Origin: Vulcanimicrobiaceae bacterium
GTDB lineage: Bacteria > Vulcanimicrobiota > Vulcanimicrobiia > Vulcanimicrobiales > Vulcanimicrobiaceae
DNA: 11,319 bases
Assembly (NCBI GenBank): GCA_046262595.1
Contig: JBHEMM010000016.1
Span: 15,332-26,650 of the forward strand
Reading direction: 5' to 3'
In this document: one piece after another, positions 1-3,000 of the stretch
Numbering within the stretch: position 1 is the first letter of the stretch
Layout: every line of letters starts with the position of its first letter
Made by a program: the position numbers

Positions 1-3000
1 TCAGTGGCCAGAGCGTCGATTTTGTAAGTCGAGGGTCGTGGGTTCGACTCCCACCGTCGGCTAAACGCCCGAGGCCCATGCCAAACGGCCTCGAACAAGC
101 AACGGCACGATGCAACCGATCAAACCCAAGTGGCTCAATGCGGGCCTGGTCCTGGTTTGCGAGCGCTGCTACAAAGAACGCATTCCGGAAGAAGATCCGC
201 AGATCGCCGCGAAGATCGGTGAGTTTAATCTGCGCGACTGGCTCAAGAATCGCTTAAAGAACGACGGACACTGGGGCAACGTGCGCGCGATAAGCACCAG
301 TTGCATGGACGTCTGCGCGCGGGGCCGCGTCACCGTCGTCGTCGATGGCCAGACCGGAACGAAGCCGGCGCACGCATTCGTCGTGGATGCGCTTGCCGAT
401 CGCGAGGCGCTATATCAAAGTATCGTCGAGTTGCTGGCTCATCCGCGCGACGACGCAGACGGCCAAAGCTAAGCAGCCGCGATCGCCGTCAATTCAAAGC
501 GCGCGCCGAAAAGCAGCGGCCCGGAGCCTAGGAACGCGCGCGCGGGCAGCGGTCCGGTGAAATACGTGCGGTAAACGCCGTTGAACGTTTCGTACAGCGA
601 AACGTCCGGCGTGTAGACGGTCACCTGCACCAGATCGCGCATGCGCAAGCCGCACTTTTCGAGCACCTCGCGCAGGTCGTCCATCAGCAGCCGCGCTTCC
701 TCGGCCGCGTCCGCCGGCGGCAAGTTCGTCGCGTCGTCCAAACCGATACGGCCGGCAATATAGTACGTGGCGCCCGCCCGCACTGCGTCGCTGAACGGCA
801 AGTTGCTGCGGCCCGGCCGCTCGAAGCTCAAGAATTCCCGTTTCATCGGGGCTCTGTATGACAGGAAATGCACGCTTTCCGGTTGAGAGTGCCGCTATGA
901 GCACAAGAGGCATCGACGCGACGTTTTTCCAGGTGAAAGATATGAAGCGCGCGCGCGCGTTCTACGACGCGATCCTAGGCGTCGCGCCGAACGTGATGAG
1001 CGAAGAATACTGGGCGGAATACACCTTTGCCGACGGCACCACGTTCGCGGTAGCATACAATCCGTCGGCGCCGTGGCGGGGCGGATCCGGCGTCTTGCTC
1101 GGCGTGGATAATCTGGAAGAAGCGGCACGGCGCGCGCAAGAAAACGGCGGTACGCTTACGGGCGTTGAGTTCGGCGGGAAAATCTGCAAATCAAAAGAGT
1201 GCATCGACACCGAAGGCAACTATCTGTACCTGCACGAGCGCTTTTAAGCGCCGCTTATGGTAATTCGATCTCCGAGAGATTCTTTTCGATCTTGCGTTTC
1301 ACGCGCTGCAGTGCGTTGTCGATCGACTTGACGTGACGTCCCAAGTCGCGCGCCATCTCTTGGTAGCTCTTGCCTTCCAAGTATGAGAGCAGCACCTGAG
1401 ACTCGAGCTCCGAGAGATTTTCCTGAATGCGCTCTTTGATGTCTTGCGAGACTTCCTGATTGATCACGAGCTCTTCGGGATCGGAGGTCTTCTGTGAGGC
1501 CATCACGTCGAGCAGCGTACGTTCGCTGTCTTCATCGTAGATCGGTTTGTTCAGCGAGATGTACTGGTTGAGCGGGATATGCTTCTGCCGCGTCGCCGTC
1601 TTGATCGCCGTGATGATCTGACGCGTGATGCACAGCTCGGCGAACGCCCGGAAGCTCGAAAGTTTGTCCGCCTTGAAGTCTCGAACCGCCTTATAGAGCC
1701 CGATCATGCCTTCTTGGATGATATCTTCGCGATCCGCGCCGATTAAAAAATAGCTCTTCGCCTTGATGCGGACGAAGTTCTTATATTTGTTGAGCAGAAA
1801 CTCCATTGCGAGGTTGTCGCCGGATTTAGCCGTCGCGACAAGGTCCTCGTCCGCCCGTTCGTGGTAGTCGAGTCCATCCGACGCAGGATGGGTCATTGCC
1901 ATTGCTACTTGCCCTTAACAGACGTGCGGCGCAAATCGCGGGCCCCGCGGGGCCTCGTCGAGCCGACGCACCCGCATAGTATAGGAGGGTGGTCCTTGGG
2001 CGTCAAGGATAAATTTGGCAGGCCTCACGAGCGTCCCGAAGTGCAGGGCCCGGCTATGCAGGCGGGCGGAATCTTCCTCGCGGCCGGGAAACGGGCGTCA
2101 TGCTTTCCTCGTATGTTTTAGCCGCGGTGGTGCAGACGGGCAACGTGAAGCCGATCCGCTCTATGCTTTTCGCGTTCCATGCCTCTGGGCAAACCGAGGG
2201 TATTTCGCACTACGGCGGCATAGAAACCGGCCTGCCGGGCGTCTCGACGAATTATTCTTTGGGCGGTTACGACGGCACAATCGCCGTGGACGTTCTCGCG
2301 CTCGGGCCCGAAAAATCGCTGGTCCTGCGCATCACGCAGTCTGTTCCCCTCGCTCACAGTCTGGACGTTCCCGCCGGCGAGTGCGCGGTCTACCCCGACG
2401 GGCAGGTGAAATTCGATCCGGGGGCCGTGAAGTTCAGCACGCCGGAACTCACGCTCACGCGTTTTTTGGGCCGCACCTTTGTGAACGCCGATGCCATGGA
2501 TGACAAGAATCATTGGGCCGTCGATTTGGCCACCGGCCGCGTAAACGTGCGCTCCGATTTTACGGTGACGAGCAACAACAACGGCGTGGTGTCGATCGAT
2601 GAAAAACGCGTCTTAAAGGACGGGAACGACGAGTCGGACACCACAGGCCGGATCAGTTACGATATCAAACGCATGGTGCCGCTTTCGATTCACGAAGAAA
2701 GCGTCGAAATCTACGGATCGGGCAGCGTGCGTACGGGGGTGGATTACACCCTTAAGGCAGACTCGCTCGCTCCGCGCTGACGCACGGCCTCGTACAGCAG
2801 CACGGCAGCGGCCACCGACGCATTGAGCGACTCCGTGCGGCCCAGCAGCGGAATCCGCACCAGATAATCGCACTCGCGGGCGACCAGCGGGCTGAGCCCT
2901 TCTTCGCCCCCGATCACGATTGCGGCGTCGCGCGTGAAATCGGCTTGCGTGTAGGCGATGCTTTGCGGTGCGATGCCGGCGCCCGCGACCCAAACGTTCG

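Follow-up and report, generated by a model that had tools for sequence, protein, structure and literature searches.

Gene content of the sigH locus

The window (the whole stretch of 11,319 nucleotides that was analysed, from a Vulcanimicrobiaceae genome) carries a gene for a sigma factor of the SigH (Spo0H) type together with the following neighbours.

1255..1902, minus strand: sigH (spo0H-type) coding sequence, an intact open reading frame of 215 aa with sigma regions 2 and 4 only
2100..2780, plus strand: 226-aa open reading frame without a known family, which fills the exceptionally long interval between rlmB and sigH
2744..3490, minus strand: rlmB (23S rRNA Gm2251 methyltransferase), TIGR00186 209.6 bits (cut-off 160), directly upstream of sigH as in Bacillus
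3496..4908, minus strand: cysS, TIGR00435 449.2 bits
4913..5554, minus strand: cysE, TIGR01172 236.7 bits
5541..6092, minus strand: 183-aa protein with a GluRS-type anticodon-binding domain only (Pfam PF19269 Anticodon_2, 30.2 bits; no NCBIfam family)
6089..6562, minus strand: ispF, TIGR00151 205.8 bits
6562..7230, minus strand: ispD, TIGR00453 213.9 bits
7227..8330, minus strand: PIN-TRAM protein (yacL-like; Pfam PIN and TRAM), first gene of the block that is collinear with Bacillus

The sigH product scored 359.7 bits against NF006148, 349.5 against NF006145 and 338.6 against TIGR02859 (equivalog cut-offs 208, 212 and 294.8 bits, respectively), so that all three SigH models were passed, as the initial annotation had reported. 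The concern raised there, that a sigma-70 family member might pass by general likeness, does not apply, since the best non-SigH NCBIfam match, the sigma70-ECF superfamily, reached 85.6 bits, and SigK 54. Models for ECF, SigB/F/G, FliA and SigE/K gave 35–86 bits, under cut-off save for the broad sigma70-ECF superfamily model, which speaks against a group 3 or group 4 (ECF) sigma-70 factor of the generic kind. Pfam recognised Sigma70_r2 (residues 36–105) and Sigma70_r4_2 (residues 162–205) and nothing else, without a region 3 domain; the transition-state and early-sporulation factor SigH of Bacillus subtilis (Spo0H, sigma-30) belongs to the same curated families and has the same two-domain build. 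The four Bacillota SigH rows that were aligned have exactly the same recognition segments in regions 2.3–2.4 and 4.2, FAELCITRQIITAIKTATRQKHIPLN and RHVKSIDNALQRVKRK. The best solved relative, PDB 3mzy ("RNA polymerase sigma-H factor", a structural-genomics entry whose organism we take to be Fusobacterium), shares the architecture of region 2 and region 4 and, with 102.7 bits over residues 55–211, lies far below orthologue level; it carries no assigned function. Judged by its family scores, its Bacillus-type locus and its presence throughout the phylum (see below), the gene is a true SigH (Spo0H, sigma-30) orthologue. It had been annotated at 1255..1896; the gene itself stands, and its start probably has to be moved, as 1896 is the second ATG and the first lies two codons upstream, at 1902. 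The first ATG is retained in relatives even though their third codon is variable (ATGGCAATC in relative L035), which makes position 1902 the likelier start.

On the minus strand, the genes follow one another in the order plsX, degV, hemW, PIN-TRAM (yacL-like), ispD, ispF, the 183-aa protein, cysE, cysS, rlmB, a gap of 840 bp and sigH. Over eight genes, this arrangement is collinear with that of Bacillus testis, the named Bacillus used as reference for gene order and identities (yacL-ispD-ispF-cysE-cysS-rlmB-sigH, then rpmG-nusG-rplK-rplA-rplJ), and the PIN-TRAM protein shares 53% identity with its positional counterpart there. As in the Bacillus locus, sigH comes after cysS-rlmB and before rpmG-secE-nusG, except that rpmG, secE, nusG, rplK, rplA, rplJ and rplL, which lie on the same strand (contig C16, 6162–2569), are here about 10.4 kb off, beyond an ABC transporter and plus-strand genes. 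The Bacillus-type locus described in the initial annotation thus holds, exactly so in its upstream half. Within the phylum, rlmB precedes sigH (cysS-rlmB-sigH) in 8 of 10 twenty-kb loci, and nusG follows sigH after about 1 kb in two genomes of other classes (L029 and L030).

Several details of the block differ from this scheme or extend it. The TIGR00186 match of rlmB begins at residue 88 of a 334-aa open frame (2744–3748). The 183-aa anticodon-domain protein, with 64–70% identity in three relatives, occupies the position at which ispF and cysE of B. testis stand about 2 kb apart, an interval that presumably corresponds to gltX. The genes mrnC and yacP, which we take to be the Bacillus neighbours between cysS and sigH, were not found among the open reading frames of the window. 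The rlmB-sigH gap measures 120–360 bp in seven relatives versus 840 bp here, and the 226-aa frame within it (no Pfam or NCBIfam match; GC3 0.74, like real genes) stands outside the conserved locus.

Promoter and 5′ leader of sigH

Upstream of sigH, two further elements are predicted.

1978..2006, minus strand: sigma-70/SigA-type promoter of sigH (TTGACG, 17-nt spacer, TATACT; 10/12 positions matched)
1919..1974, minus strand: two-tier stem-loop 5′ leader of sigH, beginning a few bases downstream of the −10 box

The promoter is the sole promoter-like site between 1100 and 2800. A pattern search covering 25 upstream regions of the same family and class located TTGAC[GC]-N17-TATA[CA]T at this position in 23 of them, and the same promoter type was visible in most relatives from other classes. 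The stem-loop is followed by about 16 nt with AAGGG and then the sigH ATG. Folded singly by minimum free energy, 20 of 23 relatives yielded one and the same nested hairpin (−20 to −33 kcal/mol); judged by eye from these folds, the outer stem varies in sequence between genomes while its pairing is kept, and RNAalifold recovered the invariant inner hairpin only (8 pairs, 0 compensatory). Transcription of sigH would therewith start at a near-consensus housekeeping promoter and run through a hairpin leader, a predicted arrangement that is new here and unlike that of B. subtilis sigH.

Distribution and conservation of SigH

SigH is regarded as a regulator of Bacillota, in which it initiates sporulation and competence. 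In the Vulcanimicrobiota, TIGR02859 was passed in 110 of 121 genomes (116 at E ≤ 1e-10) and matched in 89 of the 90 good-quality ones, which bears out the earlier statement that nearly every genome of the phylum has SigH. Likewise, B. subtilis alone passed the cut-off among the 14 control genomes, as reported before. A wider search, in phylum samples separate from that of the Vulcanimicrobiota, gave the following counts for matches at E ≤ 1e-40 and over the cut-off, respectively: Bacillota, 57 and 53 of 61; Actinomycetota, 157 and 51 of 401; Armatimonadota, 84 and 0 of 121 (top score 291.7 bits); Chloroflexota, 1 and 0 of 201; Cyanobacteriota, 1 and 0 of 81; Deinococcota, 0 and 0 of 61; and Acidobacteriota, 0 and 0 of 81. 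Actinomycetota and Armatimonadota thus score lower on this model than the Vulcanimicrobiota. In an Atlas search with SigH, the commonest group was Bacillota. The implication of the initial annotation that this phylum is an exception does not survive the counts for Actinomycetota and Armatimonadota, and its own caveat that SigH might occur outside Bacillota in more groups proved justified.

SigH-family genes in Armatimonadota and in Actinomycetota outside the class Actinomycetes (Nitriliruptoraceae bacterium ZYF776 of the Nitriliruptorales; a Thermoleophilaceae MAG) have the same upstream neighbours. Among Actinomycetota, rlmB is the immediate upstream neighbour in 19 of the 20 best loci, and the named Thermoleophilaceae MAG shows the order ispD-ispF-cysS-rlmB-sigH; in Armatimonadota, cysS lies upstream in 4 of 12 loci. 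The proteins from the best-scoring loci of these two phyla are 58–69% identical to SigH here, the named Thermoleophilaceae copy 50% and a Chthonomonadaceae copy 48%.

The diderm nature of the host, as stated in the initial annotation, is supported by a BamA-type Omp85/POTRA protein in this genome (C11:5050–7344) and, according to the description of the phylum's one described isolate, by an outer membrane with LPS (PMC9758169). This sets the host apart from Bacillus, as does the lack of Spo0A in all 61 genomes of the phylum that were searched.

Sequence conservation of SigH is high. Identity across the phylum amounts to 73–93%, versus 36–63% for CysS and 32–65% for RlmB, and identity to B. testis is higher for SigH (67%) than for L11 (61%), NusG (60%) and L1 (57%). 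A careful, unrooted maximum-likelihood tree of 70 rows, the best-scoring loci of each sample, separated every phylum from the rest by a single branch (Vulcanimicrobiota 88/26, Actinomycetota 100/99, Bacillota 78/84, Armatimonadota 100/99), with weak SH-aLRT support (26) for the monophyly of the Vulcanimicrobiota, and joined these to the Armatimonadota (99/93). A FastTree built from 104 representatives without labels had a star-like shape and gave no usable grouping. Inheritance of sigH follows the phyla.

Promoter-like dyads and candidate targets

The Bacillus SigH promoter consensus is AGGA, 17–18 nt, GAAT, and SigH may direct RNA polymerase to promoters of this type here as well. A search of 1570 upstream regions found AGGA-N17-GAAT and AGGA-N18-GAAT once each in sense orientation, that is, no enrichment. 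No −35 signal emerged from the base profile of the sequence surrounding 449 upstream GAAT words, 95 loose intergenic dyads showed no excess over control spacings (26–40 vs 37–51), and the 19 genes behind the best remaining intergenic dyads formed no coherent set. In all six genomes compared, the 300 nt preceding the same SurA_N/PPIC gene contained exactly one AGG-N18-20-GAA dyad, which makes this SurA/PpiC-type chaperone gene the only conserved candidate target of SigH found. A second candidate promoter (C42:17255) was set aside: its downstream gene is weakly related in 3 of 5 genomes only, with no conserved upstream dyad visible.

AGG-N19-GAA is the most depleted 3-mer dyad in this genome (198 occurrences vs 776 expected, z −20.7), and AGGA-N18-GAA occurs 19 times vs 147 expected. 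The promoter-like dyad is thus avoided 4- to 8-fold here, unlike in the sampled Bacillus genome. Depletion was stronger for AGGA and AGGT than for AGGC and AGGG, absent for TGGA and ACGA, and strongest with GAAT. Comparison with other genomes, based on samples of 60–400 kb, showed similar depletion within the class (×0.26 in this genome, ×0.22 in G011, ×0.28 in three others pooled); in other classes of the phylum it was moderate (×0.58 in G062) or nearly gone (×0.90 in five genomes pooled), and the other-class genomes without strong avoidance carry a SigH that is 77–80% identical. Outside the phylum, no avoidance accompanied SigH in B. testis (×0.96), two Actinomycetota (×0.88 and ×0.82) or one Armatimonadota (×1.23). 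New here is that a dyad resembling the Bacillus SigH promoter is the most avoided bipartite word, and that this holds in this class of the phylum only. The idea that avoidance tracks SigH across phyla was rejected, as SigH-bearing Bacillus, Actinomycetota and Armatimonadota genomes lack it.

Origin and role of SigH

We favour, with a probability of about 0.7, an explanation in which the gene is a true SigH orthologue of pre-phylum ancestry that is transcribed from a housekeeping promoter through a hairpin leader, acts on Bacillus-type promoters and runs a non-sporulation regulon, probably one of growth transition or envelope functions. On this explanation, sigH would have been present, already next to cysS-rlmB, in a common ancestor of Bacillota, Actinomycetota, Armatimonadota and Vulcanimicrobiota; lineages such as Chloroflexota, Cyanobacteriota and Deinococcota would either have lost it or never have had it. 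That SigH predates Bacillota had been proposed in the initial annotation; the locus neighbours in Actinomycetota and Armatimonadota and a tree that follows the phyla support this proposal and widen it. The gene counterpart of Bacillus SigH is then an old regulator, very strongly conserved, that probably served another purpose than spore formation at first. An ancient horizontal transfer would instead have SigH born in Bacillota, passed once to the ancestor of the Vulcanimicrobiota and separately to Armatimonadota and some Actinomycetota, and brought beside rlmB when a larger fragment underwent homologous replacement. Such a history could account for the patchy occurrence (1/201 in Chloroflexota, 1/81 in Cyanobacteriota, 0/61 in Deinococcota) and for an identity to the 17 sampled Bacillota rows (median 73%, maximum 78%) that exceeds the medians for Actinomycetota (64%) and Armatimonadota (62%). 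A Bacillota origin could also be hinted at by the GC content of the sigH stretch, the lowest in the window (0.563 vs 0.60–0.65), and by a protein that has fewer residues with GC-rich codons than a genome of 63% GC would lead one to expect. However, low GC and high identity are both to be expected because the protein is more constrained than L11, L1 and NusG, and the tree joins the Vulcanimicrobiota with Armatimonadota rather than placing them inside Bacillota. Since sigH is, moreover, phylum-wide and shares its cysS and rlmB neighbours in three non-Bacillota phyla, we regard transfer as unlikely.

According to the initial annotation, SigH might act with a SigF-type partner-switching module to turn on either DNA uptake or a still unseen programme for resting or spore-like cells. 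Competence genes are driven by SigH-type factors in Bacillota that do not sporulate, and the genome does contain comEC (228 bits, over cut-off), comEA-like, comF-like and two dprA-like genes, as well as SpoVS (120 bits) and a SpoIIIAA-like/R3H ATPase. Against this reading, these com genes (comEA-like, comEC, dprA-like and comF-like) also match in 7–14 of the 14 control genomes and are common in bacteria not known as transformable; no AGG-N17-21-GAA was present within 300 nt before comEA-like, comEC, dprA2 and comF-like or within about 330 nt before spoVS, and dprA has a single such dyad, at −31. In none of the 61 genomes of the phylum that were searched did Spo0A reach its cut-off (best match 90 bits, receiver domain only), SpoVG was not found in this genome (89.7% complete), and the cultured member is described as non-spore-forming (PMC9758169). 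Neither suggestion is supported, and we consider both very improbable; the Spo0A-linked onset of sporulation and competence is a feature of Bacillota function, not of the SigH protein family. Far more weight attaches to the possibility, at somewhat less than even odds, that the avoided dyad has nothing to do with SigH and is the target of some other DNA-reading system peculiar to this class, for example a further sigma factor, a nucleoid protein or a defence system. Its confinement to this class, its weakness or absence in other classes with closely similar SigH proteins and the unaffected SigH-bearing genomes of Bacillus, Actinomycetota and Armatimonadota all speak for this. What may tie the avoidance to SigH is likeness: its words and spacing equal the Bacillus SigH promoter, the preference for AGGA/AGGT and GAAT fits that promoter, and the recognition segments of SigH match those of Bacillota. 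An 18–20-nt spacer is, moreover, promoter-like and unlike known restriction sites.

Going further than the favoured explanation, and as a conjecture on the doubtful side, SigH may be among the oldest alternative sigma factors of Terrabacteria, placed next to cysS-rlmB before the phyla parted, held under stronger constraint than L1 and L11, and later recruited by endospore formation. In this class it would be made from a consensus housekeeping promoter and might be so active that selection removed three quarters to seven eighths of accidental AGG-N19-GAA promoters from both strands. If true, this would be an unusually strong case of promoter avoidance, one that would reveal from sequence alone a promoter specificity unchanged since the phyla parted. 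If SigH causes the avoidance, the dyad would also provide a sequence-only readout of sigma specificity and activity in uncultured bacteria.

SigH thus occurs throughout a diderm phylum that lacks Spo0A, and its sequence is better conserved than those of NusG and two ribosomal proteins. Because this phylum has a cultured, non-sporulating member (PMC9758169), the role of SigH before spores becomes a testable question. The label "sporulation sigma factor SigH", which NCBI's pipeline already attaches to the Actinomycetota and Armatimonadota copies and which thousands of non-Bacillota proteins carry automatically, holds no information on sporulation.

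An intact sigH gene in a Bacillus-type gene order

The source genome (G000; 2.42 Mb, 122 contigs, 89.7% complete) carries an intact open reading frame that passes all three NCBIfam SigH equivalog models (NF006148, 359.7 bits, cut-off 208; NF006145, 349.5, cut-off 212; TIGR02859, 338.6, cut-off 294.8), as the initial annotation had claimed. Its worry that general sigma-70 likeness might suffice for such a pass was checked: the best non-SigH model, sigma70-ECF superfamily, reached just 85.6 bits, and the SigK, RpoE, SigB/F/G and FliA models gave 35-54 bits. Pfam domains were sigma regions 2 and 4 only. 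The start, previously set at the second ATG (1896), was placed at 1902 because the first ATG is kept among relatives while the third codon varies.

1-62, plus strand: 3' part of a tRNA, truncated by the window edge (Rfam RF00005, 44.1 bits)
1255-1902, minus strand: sigH, 215 aa
2100-2780, plus strand: 226-aa open reading frame with gene-like GC3 (0.74), filling the gap between rlmB and sigH
5541-6092, minus strand: 183-aa protein with a GluRS-type anticodon-binding domain (PF19269) only, between ispF and cysE

The minus strand of the window reads plsX, degV, hemW, a PIN-TRAM gene (yacL-like), ispD, ispF, the 183-aa anticodon-domain protein, cysE, cysS, rlmB, a gap and sigH, with rpmG, secE, nusG, rplK, rplA, rplJ and rplL on the same strand 10.4 kb downstream of sigH; the position previously reported for sigH between cysS-rlmB and this ribosomal block is thus correct. 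The Bacillus reference order, read from the named genome of Bacillus testis, runs on one strand as yacL-ispD-ispF-(2 kb)-cysE-cysS-rlmB-sigH-rpmG-nusG-rplK-rplA-rplJ. Its interval of about 2 kb between ispF and cysE, which we take to be gltX, lies where the source genome has the PF19269 protein (64-70% identical in three relatives). SigH showed the highest identity to Bacillus testis among the proteins of the block (67%), followed by L11 (61), NusG (60), L1 (57), YacL (53), CysE (50), IspF (49), CysS and L10 (40 each), RlmB (37) and IspD (34). The 226-aa frame had no Pfam or NCBIfam match. In seven relatives the rlmB-sigH gap measures 120-360 bp. The frame, which is divergent from sigH, is probably an insertion specific to this lineage.

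SigH across phyla

The presence of SigH in nearly every sampled genome of the phylum held in a larger sample: TIGR02859 scored above its cut-off in 110 of 121 own-phylum genomes (E<=1e-10 in 116) and matched in 89 of the 90 of good quality. Among ten 20-kb loci from other genomes of the phylum, cysS-rlmB-sigH was retained in eight and the longer yacL...sigH block in four, and nusG lies about 1 kb after sigH in two genomes of other classes. Identity across the phylum was 73-93% for SigH, versus 36-63% for CysS and 32-65% for RlmB. Larger other-class genomes also hold lower-scoring SigH-like paralogues beside the orthologue (about 190-200 and 100 bits with TIGR02859; for example G009:C238:25818-26402, G016:C8:38076-38654 and one on G014:C133).

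TIGR02859 matches by phylum, in samples centred on named genomes obtained by a universal 16S primer scan (counts in larger samples are lower bounds because first-look candidates per genome were scored in part)
Phylum: genomes; E<=1e-40; above cut-off
Bacillota: 61; 57; 53
Actinomycetota: 401; 157; 51
Armatimonadota: 121; 84; 0 (maximum 291.7 bits)
Chloroflexota: 201; 1; 0
Cyanobacteriota: 81; 1; 0
Deinococcota: 61; 0; 0
Acidobacteriota: 81; 0; 0

Other Terrabacteria phyla had barely been searched before; SigH-family genes are now found in Actinomycetota and Armatimonadota as well. The Actinomycetota sample includes nine genomes flagged as unpublished (G126, G143, G364, G173, G351, G468, G516, G299, G393), all nine with a match, which supply no locus and no tree row; leaving these out lowers the counts to 148 (E<=1e-40) and 48 (above cut-off) of 392. 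Searches of single named genomes found no SigH in two Acidimicrobiia genomes, one Actinomycetes MAG and Deinococcus lacus. Gene order recurs outside the phylum: 19 of the 20 best Actinomycetota loci have rlmB as the immediate upstream neighbour of sigH, 4 of 12 Armatimonadota loci have cysS upstream, and a Thermoleophilaceae MAG shows the order ispD-ispF-cysS-rlmB-sigH around a 230-bit copy.

The careful maximum-likelihood tree, from which four long rows (L164, L216, L201, L187) were excluded, comprised 22 own-phylum rows with 20 from Actinomycetota, 16 from Bacillota and 12 from Armatimonadota; for the other phyla the rows are the top-scoring loci of their samples, which biases the sampling. 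The rows of every phylum formed one side of a split, with support of 88/26 for the own phylum, 100/99 for Actinomycetota, 78/84 for Bacillota and 100/99 for Armatimonadota, and own phylum and Armatimonadota were joined (99/93). A quick tree of all 74 rows agreed. In these unrooted trees, the pattern is the one that vertical descent would predict. Own-phylum SigH is nevertheless closer in median identity to the Bacillota rows (73%) than to Actinomycetota (64%) or Armatimonadota (62%), which keeps an old transfer of the gene alive as a rival. We consider such a transfer improbable, since the tree separates the phyla and shows no sign that the own-phylum gene arose inside Bacillota. Under vertical descent, the higher identity would reflect slower evolution in two lineages.

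The proteins already carry a SigH label in public databases, and the name 'sporulation sigma factor SigH' stands on proteins from Nitriliruptoraceae bacterium ZYF776, Nitriliruptorales bacterium and Actinobacteria bacterium that are related to a representative with 56% identity. A full-text literature search, with subscription journals and supplements outside its reach, found no paper on Bacillus-type SigH outside Bacillota, and the ECF reclassification, in the part consulted, mentions SigH only as a Bacillus factor that connects group 3 with group 4 (PMC7826278). The cross-phylum picture may be new, as may the promoter-dyad avoidance described below.

Sporulation and competence

The initial annotation proposed, as its boldest reading, that SigH drives DNA uptake or a resting-cell programme. 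The source genome does carry comEC, a comEA-like gene, two dprA-like genes and a comF-like gene, but none has a convincing SigH-type dyad (AGG-N17-21-GAA) upstream. Spo0A was above cut-off in 0 of 61 own-phylum genomes (best matches were receiver domains, <=90 bits), SpoVG was not found in the source genome, and its spoVS, though present, has no dyad upstream; neither proposed role gains from these searches. The sole isolate of the phylum is described as Gram-negative, with outer membrane and LPS, and non-spore-forming, and 'sigma' and 'competence' do not occur in the searched text of that description (PMC9758169). SigH here probably has no role in sporulation or competence. The 'Spore_III_AA' Pfam name listed earlier is explained by the following protein, which alone is no sporulation marker.

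C3:46790-48340, plus strand: 516-aa protein with SpoIIIAA-like AAA ATPase, phosphotyrosine-phosphatase-like and R3H parts

Avoidance of a SigH-type promoter dyad

The segments of this SigH for -10 and -35 recognition match those of the Bacillota rows in every letter, so a Bacillus type of promoter would be expected. A search of the source genome for such promoters found the opposite of enrichment. Relative to expectations from other gap lengths that share its codon phase, AGGA-N18-GAA occurred 19 times versus 147 expected (z -10.5), AGGA-N17-GAA 38 versus 97, and AGGA-N19-GAA 105 versus 183. When every 3-mer pair with a gap of 10-30 was scanned across the whole genome, without preselected words, AGG-N19-GAA was the most depleted dyad (198 versus 776, z -20.7), and the next-ranked were all shifted sub-words of it. 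Inside genes the loss was equal in both orientations (6 sense and 6 antisense, with about 63 expected for each); between genes it was less severe (7 versus about 16). AGGA and AGGT were avoided more than AGGC and AGGG, GAAT had the strongest effect, and TGGA and ACGA had none, preferences that fit the Bacillus SigH consensus.

The depletion recurred in the same-family genome G011 (loci L217-L236; x0.22, z -7.9) and in three further same-class genomes pooled (x0.28; L035, L036, L042). It was moderate in one other-class genome (x0.58) and absent in five other-class genomes pooled (x0.90). Outside the phylum there was none in Bacillus testis (x0.96), in either of two Actinomycetota with SigH (x0.88 and x0.82), in an Acidimicrobiia genome lacking SigH (x0.94) or in one Armatimonadota genome (x1.23). 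The avoidance is therefore real and lineage-specific; that it is tied to SigH has slightly better than even odds. In the Armatimonadota genome G761 (loci L297-L306), AGGA-N18-GAA was enriched rather than depleted at the SigH spacing (55 versus 33.7, z +3.7).

The sole conserved candidate SigH-type promoter found precedes a rotamase gene, which in six of six genomes from six genera has a single AGG-N18-20-GAA dyad in the 300 nt before it (about 0.07 expected per such region).

C37:18386-19342, minus strand: SurA_N and PPIC rotamase gene; homologous loci L357-L361

Promoter and leader of sigH

2006-1978, minus strand: predicted sigma-70-type promoter of sigH, TTGACG-17-TATACT, the sole such promoter in 1100-2800
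1974-1919, minus strand: sigH leader, predicted two-tier hairpin, right after the promoter

Of 25 relatives from the same family and class, 23 have TTGAC[GC]-N17-TATA[CA]T at the equivalent position, and TTGAC-N17-TATAAT is visible in most relatives of other classes. Expressed from this promoter, the sigH transcript would start with the two-tier hairpin; folding predicts this shape for 20 of 23 relatives (-20 to -33 kcal/mol), with differing outer-stem sequences; RNAalifold recovered an invariant inner stem only and no outer-stem covariation. The 17-nt promoter spacer (1984-2000, minus strand) is conserved, also in loci L337-L356, and often holds GGAGGG...CCCTCC, an inverted repeat that adjoins the -10 box and may be an operator for a repressor.
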